In this document: positions 15,880-63,195 of the stretch, piece by piece
How positions within the stretch are numbered: the stretch's first letter is position 1
Layout: every line of letters starts with the position of its first letter
NCBI GenBank assembly: GCA_963725425.1
Contig: CAVRYJ010000044.1
Span: 132,263-196,262 of the forward strand
Direction of reading: 5' to 3'
Origin: an uncultured Clostridiaceae bacterium
Lineage (GTDB): Bacteria; Bacillota; Clostridia; Clostridiales; Clostridiaceae
Length of the DNA stretch: 64,000 bases
Notes under the pieces: model-generated
Told to the model about the DNA's origin: nothing
The model's database searches: none
The model's input: only the letters and a program-made list of their open reading frames with translations
Position numbers and translations under genes: made by a program

Positions 15880-16748
15880 ATGATATCAAAGAAAATTTTA
15901 GCAACTATTTCATTAGTAGTTGCAATATCAGTAACAATAGTTACACCAGTATTTGCAACAAACAGTGATATCCATCTTTTAAGTGATACTTCAAAGCCTT
16001 CTTATACGAAATTACGGACAGATAACTTTGCAATACAAAAAAAATAGGCTTAAATTCACAGAACTATGGTTATGAACTGAATGGTAAAATTTATAAATTT
16101 AATGATGTATTAACTCTTTTTTATAAGTATAAAAATATTTTCACTGAACCTATGATACCCCTTCCAGCTTTGCCTTTATCCGTACGTTCAGTTTTCCCTA
16201 TCAATTCCATATACACAACAATAGGAAAACCCGCAGTATTACCAACAACTATAAGTGTTAAATTAAGTGATAGAACAACAGATGTAGCTAATATAACATG
16301 GGGAACAGTTGATGTAACAACAGTTGGATGTAAAAATATTTTGGGTACATTATCAGTTCCAAACGGAAAGACATGGAAATTAACAACTGCTCAACAGACA
16401 GTTAGTACAAAAGTTTATGTTGGTTCTTCAATAGTTGATGTAACATATAATAATGGAAGCATTGAGCTAAAAAAAGGTGATATTTTAGAATTAACTCTAC
16501 CTGAATGTGCTGATGGCGGTTACTTGTGGTCGTTTAAGTCAGCCTTAGATAGCAATATATTACAAATATTAGATGATACTTATATATTACCTAGTTCTGA
16601 TCCTAATATTCTTGGTGGTGTTGGGCAAAGACGTTGGATAATCCAAGCCGTAGACACTGGTAGTGCCACAATAAATTTACATGAATTCAGATTATTTGAA
16701 GCTAACTCTACTATTAATACCTTTAATTTAAAAATTACAATTAAATAA
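15880..16748 (+). CDS. Secreted constant-N-module protein with Ig-like and chagasin/I42 inhibitor-like C-terminus (frameshift in an A-run at ~16040)
   Basis: MISKKILATISLVVAISVTIVTPVFA signal and GLNSQNYGYE module; LELTLPECADGGYLWS...LGGVGQRRWIIQAVDTG resembles chagasin-type domains. Confidence 0.7.
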
Positions 16749-16807
16749 ATCTTTTTCTAAATGCATAAATAAATAGAATCAAAAAGAGAGAGTCGCTAGA
16801 TAGATCT

Positions 16808-17257
16808 ATGGCGGTTCTTTTTTGTTATTTAATAATGTGTTTGTTATATTGTCCTACTAAAGCAATTGCTGCAGAACCAAACAATAATGCTAAACAAGGC
16901 ATACTTTATGAATATACTCCCAAGGAAGGCTCTATAGAAGAACTATATAAAGATATAATAGCTACATTGATTGAGCCTTATATTGTGTGTGAAATACAAA
17001 CACATTATGGTCAACCACTTCTATATGATTTATTTGACATGAAATTTTAAAAAATAGAAAGACCACGTTATCGTTCATTCGACTTTACAATAAAACTTCA
17101 AATCAGACCCTTTGTTGGACCACATGATACCATAGGAATTGATGATATTACTATAAGAATAGGTCCAAGTAAAACCCAAGTTGAAGAATTTAAACATATT
17201 AAAAGCTTTCCAATTCCACCTAATTTAAAAGAGGATTATAAAGACTTAAAGTTATAA
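16808..17257 (+). CDS. DUF3888-like secreted protein (frameshift at ~17046)
   Basis: YKDIIATLIEPYI...YGQPLLYDLFDM, then in the other frame KIERPRYRSFDFTIKLQIRPFVGPHDTIGIDDITIRI. Confidence 0.6.
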
Positions 17258-17459
17258 GTAATGGAACCGCCTAGCATTAATACTAAGGGTCAACACTGAG
17301 GGTCAATTCTAATAGTTAATATTAAAGGTTGATATTAAGATATACATAGTTATCACTTGCGCAAACTTTTGGTTCCTGACCTACCTTAAAATACCATCAG
17401 AATCTTTGACTTGTTATTTTCTTGATTGTGACAAACAAAGAAGATTTAAATGAGCTCTC

Positions 17460-17880
17460 ATGGATATGAATGCTGATATTAAAAAAGCAGAAGAAAAAAT
17501 AGAATATCTACTTTGTCATTAACAACAGAGAAGCAGTTGCCAGTGAAACCAGCTTTTCCTTTATAATCTATAATTAGTTAATTCATACTAGTATTTGAAG
17601 TCAGTGTTATATATTAGTACTTAGAATCAATACTAAGTACTAATACTAAGTATCAGTATTTAGTATTGGTTCTAATAGTTAATACGGCATCTGTAAGACA
17701 ATGGAGAATGGACAATTGAAAATTGACAATTGACAATGAACAACTGGCAATGGATATTTGATAAGTAAAGGTAGTTCTTCTCCCTACTAGTAAAATTACA
17801 AAACTTCCCTTTAGATTTTTTGAAGCTTTGCTACAAAAAATCAACCATAACTATCCATTTTCAATTCTCCACTGTCCACT
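17460..17880 (+). repeat. Deleted remnant of the rpn 3' region plus ~300-bp dispersed repeat, copy 3
   Basis: Pieces match ~1437-1490, ~1764-1788 and ~1950-2290 in order, with internal deletions. Confidence 0.85.
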
Positions 17881-18277: not shown

Positions 18278-19330
18278 ATGATAACGGATATGACAAATAC
18301 AAATGACAATTGGATATATCAAAGTAATAAATTGATCGAGGCATCTTATTCATTTACGGTATTAGAACAAAAATTAATTAGACTTTTGGCAAGTATGATA
18401 AACAAAGATGATGATGATTTTAAAGAATATAAATTTAAAGCAGTTGATTTAAGCAAGCTGTTTAAAATTAATCAAAAAAACATTTATATGGAATTAGATA
18501 AAATAACAGATAAATTAATGACACGATATATAAAAATAAAACATAATGACAGTCAAAAATTTAAAAAAAGACATTTGATAAAAATAGCAGATTTTGAAAA
18601 TGGAATATTAACAATGAAGATCGATGAGGACATGAAAGAATTTTATTTAAAATTAAATTGGTATACAAAATATCAACTTAAAAATATAATGCAATTTAAA
18701 AGCACTTATTCCTTTAGGTTATATGAATTGTTTAAGCAGTATGAGAATATAGGTCATAGATTAATGGGTATTGAAGATTTACGGCATATACTAGAGATTG
18801 ATAAGAACCAATATGCTAAGTATTCAAATTTAAAACAAAAAGTTATTAGCGTTGGTATTAACGAAATAAATATAAATACTGATTTACATATAGATTACGA
18901 AGAAATGAAAGAAGTTAGAAAAGTAACAACTATTAAATTTTACATAAGACCTACTACTAAAGCAAAAAATGAAATGATAACAGCAAAAGTTGTCCAAGCT
19001 CCAAATAAATCAGAACCATATATTGACAACGTTAAATTGATTATAAAAAATGTTATTGATGATGAAATTAGCGATAAAACAGCTAATGATATTTATCAAT
19101 GTGCCACTAAAAATAGAGTATATGGAAACATGCCCTTAGAATTAATAAATGAAGTTGCAGAGTATTCTAAAACTCAAGATATTAAAAACGGTTTTGTAGG
19201 ATGGGCAAAATCTATTATTTCAACCTATGAAAGACCTATAAAAACTCATAAAACATCTAATTTCAATGATTACCCTCAAAGAAGTTATGATTACGATGAA
19301 CTGGAGAAAAAGCTTTTGGGGATAGAATAA
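18278..19330 (+). CDS. Plasmid replication initiator, Rep_3 (RepB-like) family, copy 1
   Basis: QSNKLIEASYSFTVLEQKLI, KSTYSFRLYELFKQY, YSNLKQKVI...INEIN winged-helix motifs. Confidence 0.93.
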   Translation: MITDMTNTNDNWIYQSNKLIEASYSFTVLEQKLIRLLASMINKDDDDFKEYKFKAVDLSKLFKINQKNIYMELDKITDKLMTRYIKIKHNDSQKFKKRHLIKIADFENGILTMKIDEDMKEFYLKLNWYTKYQLKNIMQFKSTYSFRLYELFKQYENIGHRLMGIEDLRHILEIDKNQYAKYSNLKQKVISVGINEININTDLHIDYEEMKEVRKVTTIKFYIRPTTKAKNEMITAKVVQAPNKSEPYIDNVKLIIKNVIDDEISDKTANDIYQCATKNRVYGNMPLELINEVAEYSKTQDIKNGFVGWAKSIISTYERPIKTHKTSNFNDYPQRSYDYDELEKKLLGIE

Positions 19331-19336
19331 ACAATA

Positions 19337-19521
19337 AGGACAATTCACAATGGACAATGGAGAGTGGACAATGGAGAGTGGAAAGTTAAGGTTGATTTTA
19401 TGTAGCAAAGCTACATAAAATCTGAAATTAATTATTAGTTTTTCTGAGCAAAGCGAAGAAAACATCATTAACTGTCCATTGTCAATTTTCCATTGTCAAT
19501 TTTTATTTTTCCATTGTCCAC
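19337..19521. repeat. Heptamer-armed hairpin element between convergent rep1 and rep2
   Basis: (CAATGGA/GAGTGGA)n - GTAGCAAAGCTAC - CTGAGCAAAGCGAAG - (TCCATTG/TCAATTT)n. Confidence 0.85.
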
Positions 19522-19525
19522 TGCC

Positions 19526-20559
19526 TTACTTAATCCCTAAAAGCTTTTTCTCCAAAGCCTCATAATCATATTCCCTTTGCTCATAATCAGTGAATGCATT
19601 TTTAGCTGTATTACCTTTTGGTTCTTGAAAAACACCTGGTCTAACCATACTTATCATAGCCCCAACAATACTATCTAATTCCTTGTTTTTAAAGTGATTG
19701 TACACCTTTTTTATAAGTTCCATATTACCATTAGAGCTATCATATATGTTCTTGGCTTCAACTGATGTTATATCCTTTTCAGCCATGATTTTTTTAACTT
19801 TCTTTATGTACTTACCTTCATTGGGATCTTCCTTAATTACTTCTGACTCAATATGTAATGAACTTTTATCTTCTTCTTCAATAACATTCTTATTTGGCTG
19901 TATGTAAAACTTAATAGCTACTATTCTGCGGCTTTTTCTAACTTCAGTGAAATCAAAACGAATATCAGTTTTAGACTGTAATTCCTTTTGAGCTTGGGCT
20001 AATACTCTTAACTTAAAATCATAATATCTTGGATATTCCTTATCTCCAATATTAAGCATATGTTTCAAGTCCTTTAGTAGTATAGTTTCATATCCTTGGG
20101 CTTTAAACTCAAAACTTTTTAATATTTCATAAAGTCTTATAGCATATTTGCTTTTAAGACTTAAAACATTTACAAGTTTATAACTTACAAATAATTCATT
20201 TAATTTAAGCAGATATGGTTTTAGTTTGGGATCAAAACATAATTCCACTGTACCTGAACCAAGTTCATATTCAGCAGATGAAAGCCATGAAAGTTGTAAT
20301 ATTTTTTTATTATTTCTTATCTCAAATCCTTTTTTCGTTAACTTTCTTGTTATTTTAGGTATCTCTATATATTTTTTTTGTCTTTAATTCCCAGTAGCTC
20401 TATAAACTCTTTTATACTAAACCTGTAAGATTTAAATTCCTCATCCTCTGGTTGTACTAAAGATGCCAGAGTAATTACTATTCTTTGCTCTTCAAGTGAT
20501 AAATCATAAGAGGCTGTAATTAGAGCATTTGATTTAGTAACTAAATTGTTTTCGTCCAT
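19526..20559 (-). CDS. Rep_3 initiator, copy 2 (frameshift in an A8 run at ~20370)
   Basis: VTKSNALITASYDLSLEEQRIV, then in a shifted frame LSWLSSAEY, KSKYAIRLYEILKS, FKLRVLAQAQKEL. Confidence 0.9.
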
Positions 20560-20614
20560 ATGTCTTCACCCCAAAAAACATTATAAACTTTATATAACTT
20601 CAACGTCAACCTAT

Positions 20615-20805
20615 TGTCGTTATTACGGTAGGAATCTGTCGTCATTACGGTAGGAATCTGTCGCTCTTAGGGTAGGAATCTGTCGTCATTACGGTAGGAA
20701 TCTGTCGTTCTTATGGTAGGGATCTGTCGTTGTTACGGTAGGCAAGTGTCGTTGTCTCGGTAGCCATCTGTCGTTGTTACGGTAGGAATGTGTCGTTGTT
20801 AGGTC
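20615..20805. repeat. Iteron array of origin 2: eight full and one partial tandem 22-bp copies of TGTCGTYRTTACGGTAGGAATC
   Basis: Units start at 20615, 20637, 20659, 20681, 20703, 20725, 20747, 20769, 20791; no spacers; upstream of rep2. Confidence 0.92.
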
Positions 20806-21297
20806 TCGTAGACTAGCCTATAGCCGCCTTTTCAGTGGGGTCCAAAACATAAAACAAGTTAAACATATAAAACAAATAAAACAACAACTATGGTTGATGT
20901 TTTATTTGTTTTACTTTTAGAACATTTTCAGGTTGTTGTTGTATAAACAAAGTCTATAATTATGATATATATTAAATTAGATTTTCAATAAAAAATTAAA
21001 GTTCTTTTATAAGTTTACGTAAATAATAGAATAAATGGTATTATAAGTGTCCATTTAGAAAAGGAAGTTTTTATATGAATAAGTTTATATATATATACAT
21101 TTTAATAATTGTGTGTACTATTTTCTGGGCAATGGTATTGTATAAGTTTGTTATAGTGAGAAACATACTGCTTATTATTGCCATGGTATTATTGCTCAAT
21201 TTGATAATACAGTGGTGTTTAAAAGTCATAAGAAAAAATAATAAATAAGCTTTAATTAGGCACAAAGAAGAAAACTGCTTATTATTTTTTTGTTTTT

Positions 21298-22350
21298 CTA
21301 ATATCCCAGCAACTGTTTCTCAAGAGCGGCATAATCATATTCTCTTTGATCATAGTCTGTTAGCTTGTTCACCTTTTGCGTTTTTATAGGTTTCTCATAG
21401 TTTTTAACTGTGGTTTTCAGCCAAGCTATTAAACTTTTGTTAATGTTTTGAGTTTTGGAGTACTCTGCCACTTCTCTTATTAGTTCTAGTGGCTTTTTTC
21501 CACCATCATTGTGTTTGCCTGCACATATATAAATTTCATTTGCAGCTTTATTTGTGATGCTGACGTTTAATACATTTTTAATAATTGCTTTAACCTGAGA
21601 TACATTTTCATCTTGTTTTTTATTTTTTGGAAAATTGGAAACTGTAGTGGAATCTTTTTGTATTAGATTATTAGACTTTATAGTAAATTTAACCCACATT
21701 ACTTTACTATTCTTTTTTATTTCCTCATAGTCAAAACTAATGTCACTGCTATTATTTATCTCATCATAAGCTGATTTTAAAACGTTACGCTTAAATTCAT
21801 AATAAACATCATAGGTTTTAGGACATTCAAGTTTACTTCGTAAATCATCCAGCTTATCAAGTCTCCAGCCTGTATCCTCATATAATTTTAGATAGTAATA
21901 AAGCCGTTTACTGTATGTATTATGAAAATTGATAGGATATTTTATATTGTAAAAACAGGCTCTTTTAGTAGTTAAAAGCAATTGCTTCAATTCATAATCT
22001 AAACTAATCTTAATTTTGCTTTCCCCATCTAAATAGGAAATACTTGAAAACCAAGCAAAATATATTCTATTTTGTTTTTTTTCACTAATCTTTTGAGTTA
22101 TAGAAAAACCTTTTCCTTCAAATGTTTCTACAGCCTTTTTCAAATCCCTGTATATATTGCTTTTGTCTTTGATATTATATAATTTACCATACTTGGATAC
22201 TTCTATTTCATATTGATATTTGTCATCATCTTCAATAGACGCAAATACCATATCCATAATGTCGTTTTGTCTTTTAGTAAGGCTATATCTTGCTTCTATT
22301 ATGGCTTCCGGCCGTTTACAAATTAATTCTCCACCTTTTTTAATCTCCAT
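21298..22350 (-). CDS. Rep_3 initiator, copy 3
   Basis: RPEAIIEARYSLTKRQNDIM, FAWFSSISY, NTYSKRLYYYLK, FKRNVLKSAYDEIN. Confidence 0.9.
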   Translation of the reverse strand: MEIKKGGELICKRPEAIIEARYSLTKRQNDIMDMVFASIEDDDKYQYEIEVSKYGKLYNIKDKSNIYRDLKKAVETFEGKGFSITQKISEKKQNRIYFAWFSSISYLDGESKIKISLDYELKQLLLTTKRACFYNIKYPINFHNTYSKRLYYYLKLYEDTGWRLDKLDDLRSKLECPKTYDVYYEFKRNVLKSAYDEINNSSDISFDYEEIKKNSKVMWVKFTIKSNNLIQKDSTTVSNFPKNKKQDENVSQVKAIIKNVLNVSITNKAANEIYICAGKHNDGGKKPLELIREVAEYSKTQNINKSLIAWLKTTVKNYEKPIKTQKVNKLTDYDQREYDYAALEKQLLGY

Positions 22351-22499
22351 ATTAACTGATTTAATTGTTAAAAAATCAGTTTTTCACCCACCCTTATTTT
22401 AAATTATAATTATGCCGTTGAGAAAAAAACTCCACCTGAAACAAAGAACTCTGTTTATGAGTATATGGTGACGTAATACGTAAATTAAATATTCTTATT

Positions 22500-22590
22500 T
22501 ACGCAGACATTCCTTACGCAAGTCACCGACATTCTCTACGTACCTTCACCGACATAGCTTACGCAAATTACCGACATTATTTACGTAGCA
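22500..22590. repeat. Iteron array of origin 3: four 22-23-bp copies (CCGACATTCCTTACGCAA-like), orphan copy near 22888
   Basis: GACAT cores at 22506, 22528, 22551, 22573; CCGACATTCCTTACGTAA again beyond the heptamer element. Confidence 0.8.
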
Positions 22591-22679
22591 AAACCATCTA
22601 ATCCATTGATATAGCTTATCTGTAGAGATTCTACTATACTCTTACTATACGTTTTACTATAAAATACTATACTACAACT

Positions 22680-22880
22680 AGTGGAGAGTTGAGAATTGAG
22701 AGTGGAGAGTTAAAAGCAATGGACAGTTCACAATGGACAATTGACAATTGAGAGTTAAAAGCAATTTACAATTGTCAATTGACAATTGTAAATTGTCCTT
22801 TCTCCTTTAATCATTAGTTTTTCTGAGCAAAGCGAAGAAAAACTTCCTTAACTGTCCATTGTCCATTGTCAATTTTCAAC
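22680..22880. repeat. Heptamer-armed hairpin element
   Basis: GGAGAGT/GGACAAT/TGACAAT arrays, CTGAGCAAAGCGAAG core, TCCATTG arrays. Confidence 0.8.
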
Positions 22881-24437: not shown

Positions 24438-24440
24438 TTT

Positions 24441-24748: not shown

Positions 24749-24786
24749 TTTTTGCACCGCCTTATCATAATAAATTGTATTTTGTT

Positions 24787-29642: not shown

Positions 29643-32600
29643 ATGAAGAAGAAAAGTTTAAGTATACTTATTGCAGTAGCATTAGCATCAACAACAATAT
29701 TACCAGCAGCTAGTGTTTTCGCAGACACTACTACACCAGTAACAACTACTACAGCACCAGTAGCAGTAACATCAGCACCAGCATCAACATATGGTGTTGA
29801 ATACGAGGGACAAGTTCAAAATATCGGATGGCAGACACCAGTTACTGAAACTGGAGATGCAACAGATATTACTTCAGCTCCAATAGCAGGAACTGTAGGA
29901 AAAGGTTTAAGAGTTGAAGCAGTGAAAATAGCAGGAACTAATTTACCAACAGGAGCTAGTATTACATACCAAGCTCAAGTACAGAATAAAGGATGGATGA
30001 CACCAGTTACATCAACTGGATCAGATATCACAGTAGCAGGAATGGCTGGAACTCAAAACCAAGGTCTTAGAGTTGAAGCATTTAAAATGACTTTAAGTGG
30101 TTTACCAGGATATGCAGTAGAATATCAAACACAAGTACAAAACAAAGGCTGGATGGATGCAGTTACAACTGCAAACGGAACTGATGTAACAGCAGCAGCA
30201 ATGGCTGGAACTCAAAACCAAGGACTTAGAATGGAAGCTTTAAAAATAGAAATCGTAAAAACAACTGCTGAAAAAACTGCAGAAGTAACTGCAATCAATT
30301 CAGTACAAACAGCAGAAGCTTCAGGACTCGCAGCAGATATAACAACAGCTACAACAGCTATAGCACAAGTACAAGATACTGTTGAAAATGCAGCATTAAC
30401 TGCTAGAATAGCAGCTATAAATATTTCAGTTTCTTCAGTAAAAGCAGCAAGCGCTTCAAGTTTTGCAGTAGCACTTAGTAGTGCACCTGCACAACAATCA
30501 AAAATTACATTTACAGTAATGAATGGTACAACTCCTGTAACTGTAGCACCAACATGGAGTGCTGATGGAAAAACAGCTACATTAACAGCTGGATCAAATC
30601 TTCCAGAAAATACTTATACTGTTGATGTAAAAAACGGAACAACTGATCTTGGAACTACAAGTGTAACTGTAACAGAACAAAAATTGCTAGTATTACAATA
30701 ACTTCAACTACATTAGCAGTTCAGACTGTTAACAATGTTCAGACTGGATTTGCAAGTTATAAAGTATTAGATCAATATGGAAATGATATTACAACTTCAG
30801 CTCTTGCTAATGATATAACATTCCAAAGTGGAGTTGGTACAGTTTCAGGAAGTAATGGTGAAATTACAATAACACCAAGTACTAATATGAATCTTATTAC
30901 ATTCCCAACAATTAATATAACTGCATATGATTCAACAAGTGCAACTAGTACAAGTGCTTCTTTAACTACATCTACACAAGAAGGAACATTAAGTAATTTT
31001 GTACTTGGAACAGCATTAACAAATGCTAATGGTAAAGTATTAACTGCAGGAGACACTACAGATATATTCTACCTTCCATTCACAGCTACAGATATAAGTG
31101 GTAATCCTACATCAAATTACAATTTGATTGTCAATGGTGTAGTTACAAACACAAGTACTAGTGGTCTTAAAAATTGCATAACTTCAACAGATACTGATGT
31201 AACTGCTCAAATTGTAAAAGATCCAAACAATTCAAACAATGCAGTAATTCAAGTAACTGATAATGGAAATAATGTTCCTCAAGATATGCCACTAGTACTT
31301 AGTGCTATGACATATACAGCAAAGACTTCATCATTGAATGTTACTTTGAAGAGAGAAGCAGAATTATCTAAATTTACTTTACAGGCTCCTTCAACAGAAG
31401 TAGCTGAAAATGATGCCTCAGCTATAATTCCATTTACAGCTGCAGATCAAGATGGAAATGTAATAACAGCATATAGCAGTATAGTTGGAAAAGTTACTTT
31501 AAGTTCTAATGCAACACTTATAGATAATGCTGATGGAACTGCTTCAGTTCAACTTAACGGACCATTTACAAGTACAGGAAATCAAATGGTAACAGCAACT
31601 TGCACAGGAGCAAGTACTGATGGATATAGTTCAGTAAATATAAATGTTCAGAATAACGCAGTAGCTAATGCATTAACTTTAAGTTCAACAATACTTATAA
31701 ATTCAATGCAACCAGGTGCAACACAGGCTGTAGATTTTGGATATAACAAAGGTGGTTTAACCGTTGCAGATCAATATGATAGAACTATGAACATGACAGG
31801 CGCTCCTGGTACTTACGAAGTTGTACCAAGTACTAGTAATAGTAATGTTGTTAGTGTTTCTGGTATTGCAGCCGGTGGAACAGGTATTACGGTTACTGGT
31901 GGAATAACAGGATCAGCAACAGTTACTTTCAACTTGATTAATACTACTGCTCCAAATACAATAATTGATTCAAAGTCAGAAATAATATCAGTTGTAGATG
32001 GTACTAACATCACAGGATATACAATAGGAGCAGTAACAAGTCCTATATATGTTGGAACTATTACCGCAGCAGATGGAACGAGCGCTCAACAAACAGGCGA
32101 TGATTATTTTGCTAATCCAGTTGTTTACGGAACAACATCAAATGGAACAAAAATAGCATTAGGTACTACTACTAAATCTTCAGTTACAGGTGTATCAAGT
32201 AATACAATAGTAGCAGCAAACGTTGATAATACTACAAACTTTAAACTTGAAGGTGATGTAGATCCATCTGATATATACGTTGGAGCAACAACAACAACAA
32301 ATAATGCAACAACAGCAAGCACTAATCTAAACGTAACAATTAATGGTGCTGATGGTCACATACATCAATTGAGTACACCTATTACATCTTCAACAGCAAC
32401 ACCAGTAGCTTCTTCAGTTGGTGTTAATGTAGCTACACAAAATGCTGGTGTTTCATTAGATAGTACTGGAACTAATGTAACAGTTAACTTATCAACAGCT
32501 AATTTAGCTAATATTGGATTAACAGCTGGTAGTTATTTGACTAAATTCACACCATCAGGTGCTGCAACTAAACAAGTAATTTACTTAGCTCCTAATGATC

Positions 32601-33436
32601 AATATGGAGAATCAGATACTAATTTATCAAGTCTTACACAAACTTCAGTTTCACCAGCAGGACAATTTAGTGTAAGTTCAACTGGATTAATATCAGGAAC
32701 TCCTGTATCCGGACAGACTGTTACACTTACAGGTGCAGCTGGTGCATATAGTAAGACAATTAATATAACATTCACAGGAACTGCACCAGTAGTAACACCT
32801 ACTGCCGTAGTATTAGGATCAGGATCAGTAACAGGAGCAGTAGCAGGAGATACAAAAATCACAGGATTAACTGCTAATACAGCATATAATGTATCAGTAG
32901 GAGGAGCAACAGCAACTTCAAAGACAACTGATGCAACTGGAGCAATCACAGGATTAATTGATGGTGATACTTATACAGTTACAGCTATAGCAGCACCTAC
33001 TGCCGTAATATTAGGATCAGGATCAGTAACAGGAGCAGTAGCAGGAGATAAAACAATCACAGGATTAACTGCTAATACAGCATATAATGTATCATTAGGT
33101 GGAGCAACAGCAACATCAATGACCACAGATGCAACTGGAGCAATCACAGGATTAATTGATGGTGATACTTATACAGTTACAGCTATAGTAGCACCAGCAG
33201 CTGGCACATTAAATGGAACAGTTGGTGCTCAAGATATATTTGGTAACTATTATGCAACAATAACAGTACCAGATTCATCAAAAGTTACAGCTGTTACAGA
33301 TCAAGGAACAGCTTTAGTACTAGGAGATACTTATTCTGCACCAACAGCAACTACTATAAAAGTACCTGTTACATCAAATGCAGATGTAGTTACAGTTACT
33401 ATTGGTGGAGTTGTTAACACTGTAGTATTGAAATAA
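29643..33436 (+). CDS. Large S-layer-like surface protein with N-terminal ChW repeats (frameshift in an A-run at ~30680)
   Basis: Signal peptide, strong RBS; YEGQVQNIGWQ, YQAQVQNKGWM, YQTQVQNKGWM ChW-type repeats; Thr/Ala/Val-rich beta domains; two 198-bp repeats near 32798-33190. Confidence 0.8.
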
Positions 33437-33544: not shown

Positions 33545-35927
33545 ATGATATCAAAGAAGACTTTAGCAACTATTTCATTAGTTATTGCAATGTCAGCAAC
33601 TGTAGTTACACCAGTATTTGCAGCAGATAGTGATATTTATCTTTTACCAAATACTACAACACCTGCTTTTACTAAAGCAGCTACAACATCTCTAGTTAAT
33701 CAAAAAGCTATAGGATTGAACTCACAAAACTATGGTTATGAATATAAGGGTGAAATTTATAATTTTAATGATGTATCAACTCTTTTTAATACTGACTCAA
33801 GAAGTTTTACTCAAACTATGACAGATCTTCCAACTAAAGAAACTCCAGTAGGTCCAGTTACTCCAGCTACTGTTGTAGCTGTTAGTTCAGTAAGTGCTAT
33901 TAACGGTACGGTTACAGTAACATTAAGTGGTACACCTACAACAACACCAGTACTTAGTGATTTTACATTAACACAAGCAATAGGCTTAGGTAATGCTACA
34001 ACAGTAACACCTACAGCTATTAGTACTACTGGAAATGTTGTTACATTAACAGTACCAACAGTAGCAGGAACATCATCATCTCAAAGTATTGTTGATTCAG
34101 CAGCATACCAAAGTGGAACTGCAGTAAGTGCTACAGCTTACAATGTAGCAGCGGTTACTACAGTAGCATCAGAGCTTGCTAAGGTTACTAATGCATCAAT
34201 AGCAACAGTACCTTATGGAACAGATATTACAACAGCTGGAACTGCCCAAGCTACTGTAGAAGGATTAATTAAAATCTTCAGCTCTAGCAGATCTTGATGC
34301 AGGATATACAGTAACAATAGCACCAGGTTCAACTTATAGCCCAATAACAAATGCATGGACTGGTAAGCTAACAGTAACAGAAACTGCAACTGGTGCAACA
34401 GCTACAGATTCAACATACAGAGCTATCACAATAGTTACTGGAGTATCTACAGCAGGAGCAACATCAGAACTTGCTAATATTACAGCAGTAGCAGTACCAG
34501 CAACACCAGTGGTACCAGAAGTAACAACAGTACCTTATGGAACAGCAAACACTCAAACTGCTGTGGAATCAGCAATATTGGTATTAGCTAATTCAGAAGT
34601 TGATTCAGGATACACAGTAACAATAGCACCAGGTTCAACTTATAGCACTGCAACAAAAGTATGGAATGGAGAGTTCATAGTAACAAATAATACAACACCA
34701 GCAAATACAGCAACAGATGCAGCATACAGAACTGCAACAGTAGCTACTTCAGCATCTATAGCAGGAGCAACATCAGAGCTTGCTAAGGTTACTAATGCAT
34801 CAATAGCAACAGTACCTTATGGAACAGATATTACAACAGCTGGAACTGCCCAAGCTACTGTAGAAGGATTAATTAAATCTTCAGCTCTAGCAGATCTTGA
34901 TGCAGGATATACAGTAACAATAGCACCAGGTTCAACTTATAGTACTGCAACGAAGTTATGGACTGGTAAGTTAACAGTAACAGAAACTGCAACTGGTGCA
35001 ACAGTTACAGATTCAACATACAGAGCTATCACAATAGTTACTGGAGTATCTACAGCAGGAGCAACATCAGAACTTGCTAATATTACAGCAGTAGCAGTAC
35101 CAGCAACACCAGTGGTACCAGAAGTAACAACAGTACCTTATGGAACAGCAAACACTCAAACTGCTGTGGAATCAGCAATATTGGTATTAGCTAATTCAGA
35201 AGTTGATTCAGGATACACAGTAACAATAGCACCAGGTTCAACTTATAGCACTGCAACAAAAGTATGGAATGGAGAGTTCATAGTAACAAATAATACAACA
35301 CCAGCAAATACAGCAACAGATGCAGCATACAGAACTGCAACAGTAGCTACTTCAGTATCTACTGCAGGAGCAACATCAGAGCTTGCTAAGGTTACTAATG
35401 CATCAATAGCAACAGTACCTTATGGAACAAATATTACTACAGCTGGAACTGCCCAAGCTACTGTAGAAGGATTAATTAAATCTTCAGCTCTAGCAGACCT
35501 TGATGCAGGATATACAGTAACAATAGCACCAGGTTCAACTTATAGTACTGCAACGAAACTATGGACTGGTGAGCTAACAGTAACAGAAACTGCAACTGGT
35601 GCAACAGCTACAGATTCAACATATAGAACTATCACAATAGCTACTGGAGCAGATACAACAGGAGCAACATTAGCACTTGCTAATATTACTACTGCATCAG
35701 TACAAACATTACCTTCTGGAACAGCTAACACTCAAGCTGGAGTGGAATCAGCAATCCTTGTATTAGCTAATTCAGAAGTTGGTACAGGTTATACAGTAAC
35801 AATAGCACCAGGTTCATCTTATAATACTGTAACGAAAGCATGGAGTGGTAAGTTCATAGTAACTAATAATACAACTCCTTCAAATACTGTTACAGATGCA
35901 GCAAGAACTTTCATAGTAGCTCAATAA
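33545..35927 (+). CDS. Secreted constant-N-module protein with three 603-bp repeats; predicted 5' exon of the group II intron (extra A at ~34272)
   Basis: MISKKTLATISLV...VFAADSDIYLL...GLNSQNYGYEY module; repeat units start near 34167, 34771, 35374, and later units show the correct frame (AAA, not AAAA). Confidence 0.85.
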
Positions 35928-45860: not shown

Positions 45861-45871
45861 ATTGCAATATA

Positions 45872-55370: not shown

Positions 55371-55448
55371 TAAACAAAAATCGTGAGACTCAAATAATGC
55401 CTATAGATAAAACACTTTTTTCATGTGTTTACTCTATAGGCACCATTT

Positions 55449-55512
55449 TGATGTCTCAACTCTTTTTAATAAAGACACGCAATTTTTACTCAAACCATGA
55501 CACATCTTCCAA
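55449..55512 (+). pseudogene. Degenerate fragment of the constant N-module
   Basis: GATGTCTCAACTCTTTTTAATAAAGAC...ACTCAAAC.ATGACA.ATCTTCCAA matches ~62364-62427. Confidence 0.7.
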
Positions 55513-56167
55513 AGCGTCCAACCAAAGAAATTACAGTATCTCCTGTTGGACAGCGAGTGTACTAGTGAAGTTACTCATGCTTCATAAGTACTATCATCAG
55601 TATAGTCTATGTTAAGCAACAAGTCATTATGAGACTATTGGTACATATGGTTTATAGTGTGTCAATTGGTCTGATTAGGAGTTATTTGAAATTTAGATGA
55701 AACAGTTATAATTAATACCTATATATGAAACATAAATAAATTATATATATTATATCCTTTCAATAGAATAATTTCTATTGAAGGGTATTTTTTAATTTAA
55801 TAGAAATTAAACTTAATAAAGTATGCACAAGTTATATAAAAATTGTATTTATATGCATTTTTTTATAGTCAAAAGGGAATAAATTACTAAGCAAAATGAA
55901 ATTATATAAATAATTTGTCTGTTTTTGTTACTTTTTAGTGAAATAAGATAGAAGATAATATATAATGTATATAATACCTACTTTGAAAATAACTCTACGT
56001 ATTGGAAAATAGTAAATTGAAAAAAAAATTTTGAAGGCTCATATTGAGATAATTATATTTTAAATTTAATTTCAAATTATTTTTTCATGTTAATAACAAA
56101 TTTTTCATACTTTTTCTTAGTGGTGAACAAGGCTAAAAAAAAAATTACACAGGAGGAATTAAATATT

Positions 56168-58186
56168 ATGATTTCAAAGAAAACTTTAGCAACTATTTCA
56201 TTAGTGATTGCAATGTCAACTATTATGGTTAAACCGGTATTTGCAGCAGATAGTGATATTTATCTTTTAAGTAATACTTCAAAGCCTGCTTATACTAAAG
56301 CAGATACAGCTCATGCAGCTATACAAAAAACAATTGGATTAAATTCACAAAACTATGGTTATGAATATAATGGTAAAATATATAAACTTGATGATGTATC
56401 AGCACTTTTTAACAATGACGGGAAAAATTTTACTCAGACAATGAATGATCTTCCAACTGCAGAGACTGCAGTAGCTGAGACTACTACTGCTTTAAGTGTA
56501 AGTTCAGTGAACGCTATTAACGGTTCAGTAACAGTAACATTAAGTGGTACACCAGTAACAGCACCTACATTATCAGATTTTGCTGTAACACAACAAATAG
56601 GTACAGCAAATGCTACTACAGTAGTACCTACAGTTATTAATGTAGTGGGTACAACTGTAACATTAACTGTTCCTACATTAGCAGGAACAACAGCAGTTCA
56701 AAGTGTTGTTGATTCAGTATCTTACAAGGCTGGAGTTGCAGTAAAAGCGGCACCTTACACAGTAGCGATTGATCAATCACTAGTAGATCAAGAAGCAGCA
56801 AAAGTAATAAACACTCAAATAGAAGCATTACCAGCTACAGCATCATTAAAAATAACAGATGCAACAGCTGTAAATGCAGCAAACGATGCATTTACTGCAT
56901 TAACGTCTACTCAAAAAGCTGATGTTAAAACTACAGATATAGCAAAATTAAAAGCAGATGTAGCAACAATAAAAGCAGACGTAGCAATAAATGTATCTAC
57001 AGATGCAGCAGCAGCGGCAACAATAGATACTCAAATAGAAGCATTACCAGCTACAGCATCATTAGCTACAACAGATGCAACAGCAGTAAATGCGGTAGAC
57101 ACTGCATATAATGCATTAACAGCAGCAGGGCAAGCAGATGTAACACCTGCAGACGTAACAACGCTAAATGCAGATGTAGCACAGATTGTTACATTAAATG
57201 ATGCAGCAGCAGCATTAGCAGTGAATGCTCAGATAGAAGCATTACCAGCTACAGCATCATTAGCTACAACAGATACAACAGCAGTAAATACCGCAAACAC
57301 TGCATATAATGCATTAACAGCAACTCAAAAATCAGATGTAAAGCCTACGGATGTAACAATATTAACTACAGATATTGCAAAAATTGCTACACTAAATGAT
57401 GCAGCAGCAGCAATAGCAGTAAATGCTCAAATAGAAGCATTACCAGCTACTGCATCATTATCAGTAACAGATGCAACAGCAGTAAATGCAGCAAATGATG
57501 CATTTAATGGGTTAACATCTACTCAAAAATCAGATGTTAAAAGTTCTGATGTAGCAAAATTAAATGCTGAGTTAGCAATATTGGATGCAGATTTAGCAAC
57601 AGGTGTAGCAGATGTTGATACTCAAATAGAAGCATTACCATCTACAGAATCTTTAGCTTCTTCTGATGCAATAGCTGTAGCAGCAGCAAATAATGCATAT
57701 AATGCATTAACAACAGATCAAAAAGCAGATGTAACACCTGCAGATGTAACAACACTACAAGCAGATGTAGCACAGATTACTACATTAAATGACAATGCAG
57801 CGGCAACAGCAGTAGATGCTAAAATAGAAGAATTACCAGCTACAGCATCATTAATAGCAACAGATGCAACAGCAGTAAATGCAGCGAACGATGCATATAA
57901 TGGATTAACAGCAGCTCAAAAAGCAGATGTAACACCTGCAGATGTAACAACACTACAAGCAGATGTAGCACAGATTACTACATTAAATGACAATGCAGCG
58001 GCAACAGCAGTAGATGCTAAAATAGAAGCATTACCAGCTACAGCATCATTAATAGCAACAGATGCAACAGCAGTAAATGCAGCAAACGATGCATATAATG
58101 GATTAACAGCAGCTCAAAAAGCAGATGTAACACCTGCTGACGTAACAACACTACAAGCAGATGTAGCACAGATCGCTACATTATAA
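56168..58186 (+). CDS. Secreted constant-N-module protein with an Ig-like domain and seven ~66-aa helical repeats
   Basis: ATG 56168 after GGAGGA; repeats QIEALPATASL..TDATAVNAANDAYNALT..QKADV. Confidence 0.85.
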   Translation: MISKKTLATISLVIAMSTIMVKPVFAADSDIYLLSNTSKPAYTKADTAHAAIQKTIGLNSQNYGYEYNGKIYKLDDVSALFNNDGKNFTQTMNDLPTAETAVAETTTALSVSSVNAINGSVTVTLSGTPVTAPTLSDFAVTQQIGTANATTVVPTVINVVGTTVTLTVPTLAGTTAVQSVVDSVSYKAGVAVKAAPYTVAIDQSLVDQEAAKVINTQIEALPATASLKITDATAVNAANDAFTALTSTQKADVKTTDIAKLKADVATIKADVAINVSTDAAAAATIDTQIEALPATASLATTDATAVNAVDTAYNALTAAGQADVTPADVTTLNADVAQIVTLNDAAAALAVNAQIEALPATASLATTDTTAVNTANTAYNALTATQKSDVKPTDVTILTTDIAKIATLNDAAAAIAVNAQIEALPATASLSVTDATAVNAANDAFNGLTSTQKSDVKSSDVAKLNAELAILDADLATGVADVDTQIEALPSTESLASSDAIAVAAANNAYNALTTDQKADVTPADVTTLQADVAQITTLNDNAAATAVDAKIEELPATASLIATDATAVNAANDAYNGLTAAQKADVTPADVTTLQADVAQITTLNDNAAATAVDAKIEALPATASLIATDATAVNAANDAYNGLTAAQKADVTPADVTTLQADVAQIATL

Positions 58187-58497
58187 AGTTCCCCACGGGT
58201 CATGACAGAATAGAAGAAACAAGTAGCATAGAATAACAAGAGAGAATCGTCAGAAATGGCGGTTCTCTTTTATTTGTGCTTGAAATAATTACCGAGTTAA
58301 TATAAATTTATATTAAAAAGTTATATTAAAAAGACAGTCGAATTATGTTACTATTTTAATGAAATATTAAAATATATACTATATAATATATATATGGGAA
58401 ATAAATAAATATATTGTTAAAGCGTAAATGGTTTTTCTGTGTGGTTAATAAAGCTAATTATATAATTAAAAAACATACTCTGGGGGAAATAAATATC

Positions 58498-60315
58498 ATG
58501 AAATTTAAGAAAATTGCAGTAACTATCTCATTTGTGGCTACTATGTCCTTAGCTTTAGTTACACCAGTATTTGCAGCAAATAGTGATATTTATCTTTTAA
58601 GCAATACTTCTACTGCTGCATATACTAAAGCAGATACAGCACATGCAACTATACAAAGAACAATAGGATTAAATTCTCAGAACTATGGTTATGAATATAA
58701 TGGTGAAATTTACAAATTTGATGATATATCAACTCTTTTTAATAATGACGGAAAAAATTTCACACAAACTATGGCAGATCTTCCAACTGCAGAAATTCCA
58801 GTGGCAAAAGTTGGACAAGCTAACACAGTAATTCACCCCACATCATTATCAATAAGCAAGACTTCAGACATCATGACAGTAGGAAACACAGATACTTTAA
58901 CTTCAACTGTATCTCCAAGTAATGCTACAAATCAAGCAGTAACTTGGACATCCTCAGATAATGCTGTAGCTACAGTAGATGCAACAGGAAAATTAACTGC
59001 AATAGCCCCAGGAACAGTGACTATTACAGCAACAACTGATGGAAATAAAACTGCAAGTTGTGCTGTAACTGTAAATGATTCAATAGCACCTATTGGAAAC
59101 GAGCAAGCTCAAGCCACTGAAAAAGCAAATGTAATACTTGCAACAATAATCAAACCAGGCATGTCTGAAATGGATAAGGAACTAGCAATTAACGATTACA
59201 TAGTTGCCAATACTAATTATGATGTTGTGGCATTTGATAATAACAATATTCCTAGTGATGACTATACAGCATATGGAATTTTAATAAAGCATATAGGTGT
59301 TTGTGAAGGATACGCAGATGCTTTTAAACTTCTTTGTGATATAGAAGTGATTCCATGCCAGGTTGTAGATGATCCTATATTAAATCATGCATGGAATATT
59401 GTTCAGTTGGATGACGGAAATTACTATCAGGTCGATTGTACATGGGATGACCCTGTTGCTTCCGATGGTAAAAGTTCAGGTAACAACATGGACCATAGAT
59501 ATTTTAATATATCTGACAAACAGATGTTTGTAAATCATACAATTGACTCTCAGCAATGGGTGGCATCTGGATACCCAAAGTGCAATGTTGACAACAGTGA
59601 ATTTTACTCAAATGCTGGTGTAGATTTAGCTTCTAACGGTAATGTAATTTATGCAAATATATCTGGTAAACTCTCTAAAGTTGATTCTAATGGAAATATC
59701 ACCGTAATTTCTAATGACAGTGCTAAAAATATTAATTATTATAATGGTTATATATATTATATAAATAATGGCTGCATATATGGAATAAATCCTGATGGAC
59801 AGAATCATATTCAGGTGTTAAGTGGAAATATATCTAGCATGTATTTGTACAATGGAGCTTTATATTATCTGAATCCTAGTGATTGGACCATTCATAAATT
59901 AGTGCTGGATGGAATTTACAATGATAATAAAAGTATAACAAGTACTACATATTCCAATTATCTTATAAATAATGGATGTTTATACTATATGGCAGGTCAG
60001 TTTACCCTTCACAGCTTGGATCTATCTAACATGGTTGATAAGGAAATTTTAAATGTGGATTCTAAAGACATATATAATCAAAATAAATACAATAACTACG
60101 GAGTTTTGGGAAACTATATTTATTATGGAATTGAAAATTCCATGTACAGAATGGATTTAAACGGAAATAATAATCAGCTTTTATCAAATAACGTGAGCAA
60201 CGCATACAATGAAATACAGATATTTGATAATTACATTTATTATAATTCCATAAATGATGGTAACTGGTACAAAATGGATTTTGATGGAACAGCTGTTACT
60301 AAATTAAGTTTTTAG
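58498..60315 (+). CDS. Secreted constant-N-module protein with Big_2, transglutaminase-like and DUF5050-like propeller domains
   Basis: TLTSTVSPSNATNQAVTWTSSDNAVATVD; GVCEGYADAF / HAWNIVQL / VDCTWDD Cys-His-Asp triad; YIYY repeats. Confidence 0.88.
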   Translation: MKFKKIAVTISFVATMSLALVTPVFAANSDIYLLSNTSTAAYTKADTAHATIQRTIGLNSQNYGYEYNGEIYKFDDISTLFNNDGKNFTQTMADLPTAEIPVAKVGQANTVIHPTSLSISKTSDIMTVGNTDTLTSTVSPSNATNQAVTWTSSDNAVATVDATGKLTAIAPGTVTITATTDGNKTASCAVTVNDSIAPIGNEQAQATEKANVILATIIKPGMSEMDKELAINDYIVANTNYDVVAFDNNNIPSDDYTAYGILIKHIGVCEGYADAFKLLCDIEVIPCQVVDDPILNHAWNIVQLDDGNYYQVDCTWDDPVASDGKSSGNNMDHRYFNISDKQMFVNHTIDSQQWVASGYPKCNVDNSEFYSNAGVDLASNGNVIYANISGKLSKVDSNGNITVISNDSAKNINYYNGYIYYINNGCIYGINPDGQNHIQVLSGNISSMYLYNGALYYLNPSDWTIHKLVLDGIYNDNKSITSTTYSNYLINNGCLYYMAGQFTLHSLDLSNMVDKEILNVDSKDIYNQNKYNNYGVLGNYIYYGIENSMYRMDLNGNNNQLLSNNVSNAYNEIQIFDNYIYYNSINDGNWYKMDFDGTAVTKLSF

Positions 60316-60656
60316 TTAATGGAATATGAAGGTATAAGCTGTTCCACAAAGATCTTAGGATATTGTGGACAAACAAATATAAGTAACGAGAGAATCGTCA
60401 GGCTTGGCGGTTATCTTTTATGATGCCTAAAAATAATTATCCAGTTAATATAAACAGAGTTATTGGATAAATTTACATTAAGCACATTAAGAAAATTGTC
60501 TACTTTTGTTATTATTTTAGTGAAATATCCAAATGCATACTATATAATGTATATAATAAGTATTTCGGAAATAAATCTACATATTGGTAAATGATATATT
60601 GGACAACAATATTAATTATATAATTAAAAAAACATATACAGGGGGAATTAAATATT

Positions 60657-61697
60657 ATGATATCAAAAAAAATCCTAGCGACTATTTCATTAGTGACAGC
60701 AATGTCATGGACTTTAGTTACACCAGTATTAGCAGCAAATAGTGATATTTATCTTTTAAGTAATACGTCAACACCTGCTTATACTAAAGCAGATACAGTT
60801 CATGTAGCCACACAAAGAATAATAGGATTAAATTCACAGAACTATGGTTATGAATATAATGGTAATATTTATAAATTTGATGATGTATCAATTCTTTTTA
60901 ATAGTGACGGAAAAAATTATACTCAAACTATGAGTGATCTTCCAACTAAAGTAACTGCAGTTGCTGTAGTTTCTTCCAGTCAAATAGTAACTTTTAAAGA
61001 TGGGAATTTACAAAACGCCATAAGAAATGCTATAAATAAGCCAACAGGAACTCTATATAAAAGTGATGTTCAAAACATTAAAACTTTATTTGTAGGAGGC
61101 ATTGGTATAACTGATATTAGTGGAATTGAAAACTTAACAAATTTAAAGTCACTTGATTTACATAGTAATCAAATAAGTGATATAAGCAAATTAACAGGGT
61201 TAACAAATTTAGCATCACTTGTTTTAGGTGGTAATGTAATAAGTGATATAAGTGCACTAAAGGGATTAACAAATTTAACATCACTTAATCTAGATAATAA
61301 TGAAATTAGTGATATAAGTTCATTAAAAGGGTTAACTAATTTAACGTCTGTTGATCTAGGTACTAATTATATAAGTGATCTAAGTTCCCTAACAGGATTA
61401 ACTAATTTAACATCTATTAATCTAGGTAGTAATCATATAAGTAATCTAAGTTCCCTAACAGGATTAACTAATTTAATGTCTATGGATCTAAGTAGTAATT
61501 ATATAAGTGATCTAAGTTCCCTAACAGGATTAATTAATTTAACGTCTATTAATCTAGGTACTAACCATATAAGTGATATAAGTCCACTAACAGGATTAAC
61601 TAATTTGACGTCTCTTGGTCTAATTAGCAATCAAATAAGTTCCACAAATCAGCAAATATTGAAAAAATCTTTATCTAATTGTTCAATAACATTTTAG
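60657..61697 (+). CDS. Secreted constant-N-module protein with internalin-like leucine-rich repeats
   Basis: About nine 22-aa LRRs NLTSLxLxxNxISDISxLTGLT after VTFKDGNLQNAIRNAI. Confidence 0.9.
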   Translation: MISKKILATISLVTAMSWTLVTPVLAANSDIYLLSNTSTPAYTKADTVHVATQRIIGLNSQNYGYEYNGNIYKFDDVSILFNSDGKNYTQTMSDLPTKVTAVAVVSSSQIVTFKDGNLQNAIRNAINKPTGTLYKSDVQNIKTLFVGGIGITDISGIENLTNLKSLDLHSNQISDISKLTGLTNLASLVLGGNVISDISALKGLTNLTSLNLDNNEISDISSLKGLTNLTSVDLGTNYISDLSSLTGLTNLTSINLGSNHISNLSSLTGLTNLMSMDLSSNYISDLSSLTGLINLTSINLGTNHISDISPLTGLTNLTSLGLISNQISSTNQQILKKSLSNCSITF

Positions 61698-62136
61698 CAG
61701 AGACTATCCAATAGTTATCAAAATAACAGAATAATTAAATATAAATAATGAGATATTTTAATTGATTAATATTTTGTATAAAAAGGAAAACATACTTTGT
61801 CATTAATGAAGTATCAACGAACATGAAAATTAATAAAGAGAGAATCTTCTGAAATGTCGATTCTCTCTTATCCTGTCTAAAATTTCCACCTAAATATTGT
61901 TAATGATAAATTGGTTACAGGTTCATAAAGTGGAACAATATGTGTTGCAGCATCGTTAAAGAAAATTGTATTTTTAACGATAACATTAATATGTTTATAC
62001 TTCTTTTGATGAAACTGTTATAAAAGTATTTGCAGTAAAAACAGAAATTCTTTTAATTACTATTAGTGATGATGTTTACACTGTCACACCAAGCTAATTA
62101 TATAATTAAAAAAATATAATAGGAGGATTCAAAATT

Positions 62137-63195
62137 ATGTTATCAAAGAAAGCTCTAGCAACGATTTCATTGGTTATTGCAATATCAGTAACTTTAGTTA
62201 CACCAGTATTTGCAGCAGATAGTGATATTTATCTTTTAAGTGATACTTCAAAGCCTGCTTTTACTAAAGCAGATACAGCTCATATTTCTACGCAAAGAAC
62301 AATAGGGTTAAATTCAGGGAACTATGGTTATGAATACAATGGGAAAATTTATAAATTTGATGATGTCTCAACTCTTTTTAATAAAGACGGAAAAAATTTC
62401 ACTCAAACTATGACAGATCTTCCAACTGCAGCAAATTCGGTACATGATGTAAGTACTGCTTTAAGCGTAAGTTCAATTAGTGCAACCAGCACTTCCACTG
62501 TTACCGTTACTTTCAACAACACAGTTGCGGCTACAGATGAAGTAGCATTGGCCTATACATTTAATGGAGTAGCAGTTCCAGCCAGTAATATAACATATTC
62601 AGGGACAACAGCTACATTAACTGGATTAACTTTAGTAAGCTCAACTGATGGAAAAACACCAGCTTATCAATTAGAAGTAAAGTCAGGAACTACTGAATTA
62701 GTTAATCAAAGTGTAGTTTTAAAAAACTCACTTATTGCTTCAGTGTCAGCTGTTCCAGATGTTTCTGTAGTTCAAAATGCACAACCTGTATTGCCTAGAA
62801 CTGTTAATGTCACATATAAAGACGGGTCTTCAGCAGCAGTTCCTGTTACTTGGGGTTCTGTTATTACAAGTACCGCAGGAATAAAAAAGGTAGTAGGCAA
62901 AATAAGTGGCACAGCATTAACTGCAACAATTAATGTTAATGTAACTGCCATAGATTATATTGATGATAGTGGTATTTCCATGGTCGACTATCCTACTTTG
63001 GGTATATATTTAGTAAATGTCCAGGTGGACAGTAGTGTAGCTAGTCTATCACTTAATGGTACGACCATGTATTATGAGGGGAATGATACTTTTCAATTAT
63101 CTACTGTACTAACAAAAGGTTCAACAGTAACATTTAATGCATATGATGCTACAGGAAAGCTATTAGTATCCAAGCCATATACAGTTCAGCAATAA
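62137..63195 (+). CDS. Secreted constant-N-module protein with Ig-like (Big_4-like) domains
   Basis: LPRTVNVTYKDGSSAAVPVTW. Confidence 0.85.
   Translation: MLSKKALATISLVIAISVTLVTPVFAADSDIYLLSDTSKPAFTKADTAHISTQRTIGLNSGNYGYEYNGKIYKFDDVSTLFNKDGKNFTQTMTDLPTAANSVHDVSTALSVSSISATSTSTVTVTFNNTVAATDEVALAYTFNGVAVPASNITYSGTTATLTGLTLVSSTDGKTPAYQLEVKSGTTELVNQSVVLKNSLIASVSAVPDVSVVQNAQPVLPRTVNVTYKDGSSAAVPVTWGSVITSTAGIKKVVGKISGTALTATINVNVTAIDYIDDSGISMVDYPTLGIYLVNVQVDSSVASLSLNGTTMYYEGNDTFQLSTVLTKGSTVTFNAYDATGKLLVSKPYTVQQ

Follow-up and report, generated by a model that had tools for sequence, protein, structure and literature searches.

Introduction

Surface display in Gram-positive bacteria is known through a small number of anchoring modules, namely SLH, CWB2, LysM, the choline-binding repeats, the LPXTG signal and the uncharacterised ChW repeat, and the design in which one shared anchoring unit is joined to swapped cargo and encoded near S-layer genes is well known from SLH, CWB2 and ChW proteins. 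Here we describe a family of secreted proteins headed by a common short N-terminal domain (the module), encoded by six genes in a 64,000-nucleotide stretch of DNA, referred to as the window, from the uncultured Clostridiaceae bacterium GCA_963725425.1 (contig CAVRYJ010000044.1, positions 132,263-196,262 of the forward strand). The source assembly is 5.77 Mb in 46 contigs with a completeness of 93%, and the contig that hosts the window is 273 kb long. We assess whether the module may be a further surface-retention unit of this kind.

In the SLH family of Bacillus anthracis and Bacillus cereus (Sap, EA1 and approximately 22 S-layer-associated proteins) a common unit likewise follows the signal peptide, paralogues carry unrelated cargo, the unit is present both on large S-layer proteins and on smaller associated proteins, and slaP/secA2-type genes for S-layer secretion are found in the same gene clusters (PMC9277125). 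However, SLH anchors are built of three helical repeats of approximately 55 amino acids, whereas the module is a single acidic α/β domain of 72 amino acids that has no PF00395 or fold match, for which no csaB-type link was found, and that is restricted to a few Clostridiaceae. The Cwp proteins of Clostridioides difficile and other clostridia, which carry CWB2 (PF04122), are again surface paralogues that have an anchoring unit in common but differ in their functional domains; they are encoded in clusters with S-layer and accessory Sec genes, and CWB2 proteins lie beside module proteins in one of the genomes discussed below (G243). The module is nevertheless not homologous to CWB2, is present in single copy rather than as a triplet, and is found in a genome with only seven CWB2 repeat matches, at two places elsewhere.

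The ChW repeat (PF07538) of Clostridium acetobutylicum-type surface proteins likewise stands as a head at the N-terminus of modular proteins secreted by clostridia, and it is exchangeable with the module on homologous cargo; it is a predicted surface-anchoring repeat with an unknown ligand (PMC5817068). Unlike ChW, the module lacks a GW motif and any PF07538 match, is one domain rather than three repeats of approximately 45 amino acids, and is far rarer, with six copies in the window genome against 69 ChW repeats, which are the dominant repeat of this type there. Finally, dockerin, in cellulosomal and non-cellulosomal dockerin-cohesin systems, is a small portable module on diverse cargo, and the module too may have a protein partner. 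It differs in lacking Ca-binding repeats or a Pfam match and in being N-terminal where dockerin is usually C-terminal, and no cohesin-like partner for it was identified.

Results and discussion

Six genes share a signal peptide and a short N-terminal module

The initial annotation of the window had listed six genes, starting at positions 15880, 33545, 56168, 58498, 60657 and 62137, that share a signal peptide and a module. All six are real at these starts; five are open, and the sixth, at 15880, is broken by a frameshift. The translations begin with MxSKKxLATISLV...PVFA, followed by A[DN]SDIYLL...YGYEYxGxIYKFDDVSxLFN...FTQTMxDLPT. An alignment of the five open copies spans 102 columns without a gap, with a mean column identity of 84%, 55 invariant positions and 66-73% identity to the first sequence. 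The constant part consists of a type-I Sec signal peptide (residues 1-26, ending ...PVFA before A[DN]SD) and a mature domain of 71-74 amino acids that ends at DLPT. The shared N-terminus therefore stands as it had been described, but the size first given for the module, approximately 95 amino acids, does not, since that figure counts the signal peptide.

A search of the 5.77-Mb genome found six copies of the module, all of them in the window. Among the four tandem genes the ratio of nonsynonymous to synonymous substitution rates (dN/dS) was 0.14-0.37 at a dS of 0.28-0.54; comparisons with the 33545 copy were noisier (dN/dS 0.47-0.93 over 71 codons). We conclude from the low ratios at this level of divergence that the module has been kept by selection and not by recent gene conversion. 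A fragment previously noted at 55449 is also genuine: DNA alignment to three intact copies identifies it as a relic of approximately 70 nucleotides of the module 3' end (55447..55515, forward strand). It encodes FDVSTLFNKD...TMTHLP, lacks a start codon and contains an indel.

The module is predicted to be a small α/β domain without a detectable relative

Sequence searches bore out the view that the module is not SLH, CW_binding_1, CW_binding_2 or ChW. The module gave no Pfam or NCBIfam match, be it within the full-length proteins and their relatives or among 18 isolated modules at E <= 10, no PDB sequence was matched in a profile search, and profile searches against Pfam/NCBIfam and the PDB returned only noise (a xylanase at E 0.05, GATase_6 and Pas_Saposin). 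SLH (PF00395) was found neither in 15 full-length members (E <= 0.01-0.1) nor in the 18 isolated modules (E <= 10), and CW_binding_2 (PF04122) matched neither the module proteins nor the isolated modules. The CWB2 test is valid here because the same profile detects the seven repeats elsewhere in this genome. Likewise, ChW (PF07538) did not match the module proteins although its profile finds the 69 genomic repeats, three of them in the neighbouring gene at 29643. Choline-binding repeats (CW_binding_1, PF01473), LysM, SH3b and GW were absent from the Pfam matches even at E <= 10.

Structure prediction of the module alone gave a confidently folded domain. AlphaFold2 with an alignment of 29 sequences returned five models with a predicted local distance difference test score (pLDDT) of 96.8, 96.8, 96.5, 96.4 and 95.4 and a predicted template modelling score of 0.84; with an alignment of eight sequences it returned one confident model (pLDDT 90.6) of the same topology. 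The modelled chain is a compact β - α - β-hairpin - α - α arrangement with the invariant YGYE...Y on the hairpin, and the module is thus predicted to be an autonomous small α/β domain of approximately 72 amino acids. A fold match was defined as a Foldseek E <= 0.001 or a template modelling (TM) score > 0.5. The model with a pLDDT of 96.8 gave a best E of 2.9 against the PDB, with query TM scores of 0.33-0.37, and the first model a best E of 3.4 against the PDB and 1.0 against BFVD. Neither sequence nor fold comparison (PDB, BFVD) thus reveals a relative of the domain, no literature on it was found, and it appears to be undescribed.

Its hallmarks are [AK][DN][GS]D[IVL][YW] at the mature N-terminus together with the invariant YGYE...Y β-hairpin. 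Four sequence subtypes can be distinguished. The isoelectric point (pI) lies between 4 and 6 in 24 of 29 module sequences, and 8-12% of the residues are aromatic.

The shared N-terminus carries swapped cargo

Cargo was assigned by Pfam and NCBIfam scans and by Tandem Repeats Finder, and the domain scans and repeat finding upheld the earlier description of chagasin-type, long-repeat, transglutaminase, LRR and Ig-like cargo behind DLPT. All six genes lie on the forward strand, and each encodes a signal peptide and the module followed by its own cargo. The frameshifted copy at 15880..16748, whose module was recovered as two pieces in the genome search (E 8e-16 and 1.6e-5), carries Big_4 and a chagasin-type Inhibitor_I42 domain (3.7e-16). 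The copy at 33545..35927 (module 33623-33844) encodes an Ig-like domain and five 99-amino-acid repeats (297-nucleotide period, 5.2 copies), and that at 56168..58186 (module 56246-56467) the same Ig-like domain and six Ala/Thr-rich repeats of 66 amino acids (198-nucleotide period, 6.2 copies). At 58498..60315 (module 58576-58797) the cargo is Big_2, Transglut_core and a DUF5050 β-propeller-like region, and at 60657..61697 (module 60735-60956) it is an internalin-like LRR array (LRR_4/LRR_8) made of 7.7 copies of a 66-nucleotide (22-amino-acid) unit. The copy at 62137..63195 (module 62215-62436) carries Ig-like and Big_4 domains and has orthologues of the same architecture in two other Clostridium genomes (L010 5911-6999 and L015 13982-15076), in each of which the same gene, for a protein of approximately 1000 amino acids, is next.

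In pairwise BLASTP comparisons, homology mostly ends near residue 110; for the 33545 and 56168 proteins, which are 58% identical over 250 amino acids, it reaches to about residue 250. As these end points vary between pairs, the points of exchange differ from gene to gene.

Upstream homology had also been noted, with blocks near 55915, 58335 and 60495 as examples. By alignment it is present for three of the genes and weak or absent for 15880, 33545 and 62137. The conserved blocks, all on the forward strand, are 55915..56167 upstream of 56168 (promoter-like site 55938-55966), 58335..58497 upstream of 58498 (promoter-like site 58359-58387, preceded by a terminator-like hairpin at 58238-58271) and 60495..60656 upstream of 60657 (promoter-like site 60520-60548, preceded by a terminator-like hairpin at 60393-60412). 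The blocks are homologous and their promoter-like hexamers positionally equivalent, which indicates that entire 5' gene ends were duplicated. The family has grown by tandem duplication that took the promoter and 5' end along, and by recombination at varying points downstream of the module.

The module and ChW repeats head homologous cargo

A ChW-headed S-layer-like protein is encoded in the window at 29643..33436 (forward strand), as two open reading frames (29643-30701 and 30887-33436); in the first of them a triplet of ChW repeats is read in the same frame as the first cargo domain. A cargo region of approximately 350 amino acids in a module-headed protein of 653 amino acids from genome G303 is homologous to the cargo of this ChW-headed protein (38% identity, E 2e-50). 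The same G303 region also matches a 1158-amino-acid protein of Clostridium estertheticum that has another, unrelated head (40% identity, E 6e-47). Since homologous cargo is found under both heads, we conclude that the module and the ChW triplet fill the same architectural slot.

The C. estertheticum orthologue (L015 2291-5767) begins with a third type of head (GTVVIGTKAFDIDYANDPANA...YYKDFNGNWVDN), for which no Pfam match is recorded.

Module genes lie amid S-layer-type neighbours

In the window, four tandem module copies come after comM-dprA; the Big_4 copy is followed by the protein of approximately 1000 amino acids and then by a ChW-headed S-layer-like gene. Of the gene for the former only the start lies in the window (63229..64000, forward strand); it encodes a secreted 'AVPYTYT' protein with aBig_2, runs beyond the window and is found behind the Big_4 module gene in each of three genomes. 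Both the dprA linkage and the pair formed by the Big_4 module gene and the gene for the protein of approximately 1000 amino acids recur in a Clostridium metagenome-assembled genome and in C. estertheticum. This dprA-linked position, common to a metagenome-assembled genome of another genus, shows that the locus is chromosomal, and we rejected the idea that it is mobile-element cargo despite the plasmid Rep genes and the integrase island nearby.

In the C. estertheticum locus a module-headed S-layer-like protein of 1078 amino acids is accompanied by three smaller module genes, a membrane-tethered protein of 250 amino acids and a SlaP-type gene. In G243 the module heads proteins of 224 and 1151 amino acids, the latter S-layer-like, which are placed between proteins with three CWB2 repeats and a SlaP paralogue, and the G303 locus repeats the theme of module genes amid S-layer-type neighbours. 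An all-against-all comparison of the loci confirmed that the neighbours of module genes are recurrent.

A β domain of approximately 55 amino acids, X2-like or Shr-HID-like (V.KVT.NG..L...D.Y......V.I......D.V.I), recurs C-terminally in module loci and is a candidate partner domain. It is carried by membrane-tethered proteins, such as that of 250 amino acids at L015 12844-13596, by ChW-anchored and CWB2-anchored proteins and by small module proteins, with sites at L015 12844-13596, L010 4880-5620, approximately 33206-33337 in the window, L042 6571-7149 and the C-terminus of the L042 open reading frame 12398-16399.

The module has a narrow distribution

The module is very rare. When 1.84 billion representative proteins were searched by profile, 19 matches came up, two of them spurious; P0020 and P0022, which are repeated 'YEYNG' proteins, were dropped as false positives. 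Among 395 Clostridiaceae genomes we count approximately eight true carriers in four genera, after removal of two weak matches (in G138 and G353; L022 and L024) that do not resemble the module. Two Clostridium metagenome-assembled genomes were positive in a scan of 185,579 species genomes. The module was absent from sixty relatives drawn from the genus, family and order, and no relatives were found in JGI metagenome contigs, IMG/VR viral contigs, INPHARED phages or PLSDB plasmids. A word-indexed protein search returned the window's own proteins only; with a second query, P0010, it found P0010 alone. Named members are 'hypothetical proteins' of C. estertheticum and C. ihumii.

In every true member, and in all four subtypes, the module begins directly behind the signal peptide. 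The family shows lineage-specific expansion, with six copies in the window genome and nine in G303, and the cargo of the relatives includes a serine protease and an ice-binding-like domain. In all, the module is joined to at least ten cargo types, and it is also found on a prophage gene. This last gene, in a C. estertheticum prophage (GCA_020443435.1, L014 10001-11428), encodes a signal peptide, the module, Big_4 and LRR. Tape-measure, Dit and tail genes lie on one side of it and an Amidase_3 lysin on the other, and the strain has the chromosomal module locus as well. The gene resembles one for lysogenic conversion that would make use of the host's surface handle.

The module is a candidate surface-retention or docking domain

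The initial annotation had inferred that the module docks proteins on the cell wall or S-layer and so serves as a platform for their display. The folded domain, the swapped cargo, the surface-protein loci and the exchange with ChW are all in favour; docking itself is plausible but unproven, and the acidity of the domain speaks against it. On the sequence evidence we propose that the module is a putative new non-covalent surface-retention or docking domain, and we would give this a probability of about 0.5. After export and signal-peptide cleavage, the domain would hold the protein non-covalently on the cell envelope, the attachment site being either a wall-associated glycan or an S-layer or scaffold protein. 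One common handle would in this way display a protease inhibitor, LRR, Ig-like arrays, a transglutaminase-like enzyme and other cargo.

Surface retention is made plausible by the exchange of heads with ChW, by the company of S-layer loci, by the occurrence of the module on S-layer-like proteins of 1078-1151 amino acids and by the lack of another anchor. Sixteen members were checked, six from the window and ten relatives from the databases, and none has a C-terminal membrane helix or LPXTG-type signal; LPxT[GAS] strings occur in them only as 'EALPATASL' motifs of internal repeats. Pfam or NCBIfam scans of 15 members likewise gave no match to SLH, CWB1, CWB2, ChW, LysM or any other wall-binding family. 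The cargo of the members is, moreover, typical of displayed proteins.

Several points weigh against this proposal. The module is mostly acidic, unlike most wall-polymer-binding modules, and it is present in single copy, whereas SLH, CWB2 and ChW act as triplets; these two properties lead us to favour a protein partner or a neutral glycan over an anionic wall polymer. The argument from head exchange leans on ChW, which is itself only a predicted anchor (PMC5817068). Linkage to S-layer loci suits a role in export or assembly equally well, and a further simple possibility is release of the module proteins into the medium.

Alternative roles for the module

A role in export or assembly would have a SlaP paralogue and the accessory Sec system recognise the mature N-terminal domain and route the proteins into S-layer secretion. 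In B. anthracis, slaP, slaQ and secA2 support secretion of S-layer proteins (PMC9277125), and the fixed position of the module directly behind the signal peptide would suit such a handle. SlaP homologues are enriched in module carriers of the family sample (seven of eight module-bearing genomes against 119 of the 378 others, Fisher p = 0.002), and a second, distinct SlaP paralogue lies approximately 2-21 kb from the module genes in six of the seven carriers other than the window genome. Such SlaP-type paralogues in module loci, found at L015 18479-19285, L042 5654-6472, L043 10668-11462 and L010 10112-10957, have two TIGR04398 (SLAP_DUP) domains and fall below the TIGR04399 equivalog cut-off. 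However, the window genome has six module genes but only a single SecA and, in a tblastn search with a positive control of an assembly that is 93% complete, no SlaP homologue; SlaP is likewise absent from all seven sampled species of its genus. In addition, the prophage copy is not linked to SlaP, SlaP is common without the module (126 of 386 family genomes have it), and a stably folded domain of 72 amino acids would be an unusual export signal. Because the window genome lacks SlaP and has one SecA, we rank an export handle as a weaker rival, and an unlikely one.

Self-association is a further tentative alternative, which we likewise hold to be improbable. Here the module would oligomerise, or join a lattice of module-headed S-layer proteins in which small paralogues co-assemble with large ones. 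An acidic, aromatic-rich domain suits protein-protein contacts, and large S-layer-like module proteins (1078, 1151 and 1255 amino acids) occur with small paralogues within one locus. On the other hand, the window genome encodes no obvious large module-headed S-layer protein besides the repeat proteins 33545 and 56168, and a lattice overlaps with surface docking rather than excluding it.

It is also conceivable, though again doubtful, that the module is the dockerin-like 'plug', with a new fold, of an undescribed docking system of clostridial S-layer loci. The 'socket' would be a co-inherited protein of the locus, for which the X2-like C-terminal domain of approximately 55 amino acids and the 'AVPYTYT' protein of approximately 1000 amino acids are candidates; prophages would exploit the system to decorate the lysogen, and the linked SlaP paralogue would serve it as a dedicated assembly factor.

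We consider it quite improbable that the proteins are freely secreted, with the module binding an external target (a substrate, other cells or host material) or merely stabilising the N-terminus. The members do lack a known anchor, and inhibitor and enzyme cargo could work at a distance, but the alternation with ChW on the same cargo, the S-layer locus context and the presence of LRR and Ig-array cargo, typical of displayed proteins, all argue otherwise.

That the module is a pro-domain or intramolecular chaperone cleaved off after export, as its N-terminal position and the conservation of DLPT at its end in the window copies might suggest, is very improbable, given that DLPT is not kept in relatives (ALSTE, ALVIE, KVKSD), that no linked protease is conserved across loci in the all-against-all comparison, and that cargo folds as unrelated as LRR, Ig, inhibitor, enzyme and repeats make a common folding chaperone unlikely.

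Two further candidates were rejected. DLPT is not a sortase motif: it is not LPXTG-like, is unconserved in relatives and has no C-terminal sorting signal after it. A polymorphic toxin system does not fit the cargo (LRR, Ig-like, I42, transglutaminase and repeats) or the type I Sec signals, and the module genes are monocistronic: each has a promoter-like and a terminator-like site to itself, and small open reading frames are absent downstream, which bears against a toxin-immunity arrangement.

Frameshifts and other features of the window

The three frameshifts in surface-protein genes that we inspected all fall in homopolymers. In the 15880 copy a one-nucleotide frameshift lies within an A8 run (16037-16044), and the downstream frame is open from 16044 to 16748. 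The open reading frame of 33545 ends at 34297 owing to one extra A near 34270, in an A4 run, and the frame carries on to 35927. In the gene at 63229 the frameshift is in a T7 run (approximately 63296-63302) inside the signal peptide. The ChW gene 29643/30887 and its downstream paralogue are likewise split. Such homopolymer frameshifts are either assembly errors of the long-read type or slipped-strand phase variation.

A group II intron domain V/VI is present at 36603-36690 (Rfam RF00029, 46 bits, E 7.5e-6), the intron spanning roughly 35930-36690, and it sits between the end of the open frame of 33545 (35927) and a surface-protein-like open reading frame at 36677-37618. At 47982-50156 a 724-amino-acid SWM_repeat/Big_5 reading frame of surface type, which lacks a recognisable start or signal peptide, may be a further surface gene that has suffered a truncation or frameshift. 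A stretch of approximately 10 kb at 18278-27732, adjoining the first module copy, contains a ParA gene and four genes for RepB-like replication initiators. A small integrative element, with an integrase, an 840-amino-acid primase-helicase, a second tyrosine recombinase and HEPN genes, occupies 38694-47501 between two groups of surface genes. Two identical reading frames for a 199-amino-acid Y1 (IS200-like/REP-associated) transposase, at 52166-52765 and at L013 15779-16378 (C44:211178-211777), flank the comM-dprA-module-ChW region, with several PD-(D/E)XK Rpn-like genes dispersed in their vicinity.

Significance

The module is a candidate anchoring unit of approximately 72 amino acids that is single-copy and N-terminal, has a very confidently predicted fold and serves as a portable handle. 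Its reach is limited by its narrow distribution, which covers a few psychrotolerant and environmental Clostridium lineages. The linkage to a second SlaP paralogue offers a route to what SlaP proteins recognise. If the predicted binding is true, the module would establish a new family of anchoring or docking domains, together with the ligand that they recognise, and would provide a very small display tag for anaerobes. It would also help to explain how the cell surface is built in clostridia that are rich in ChW or poor in CWB2.

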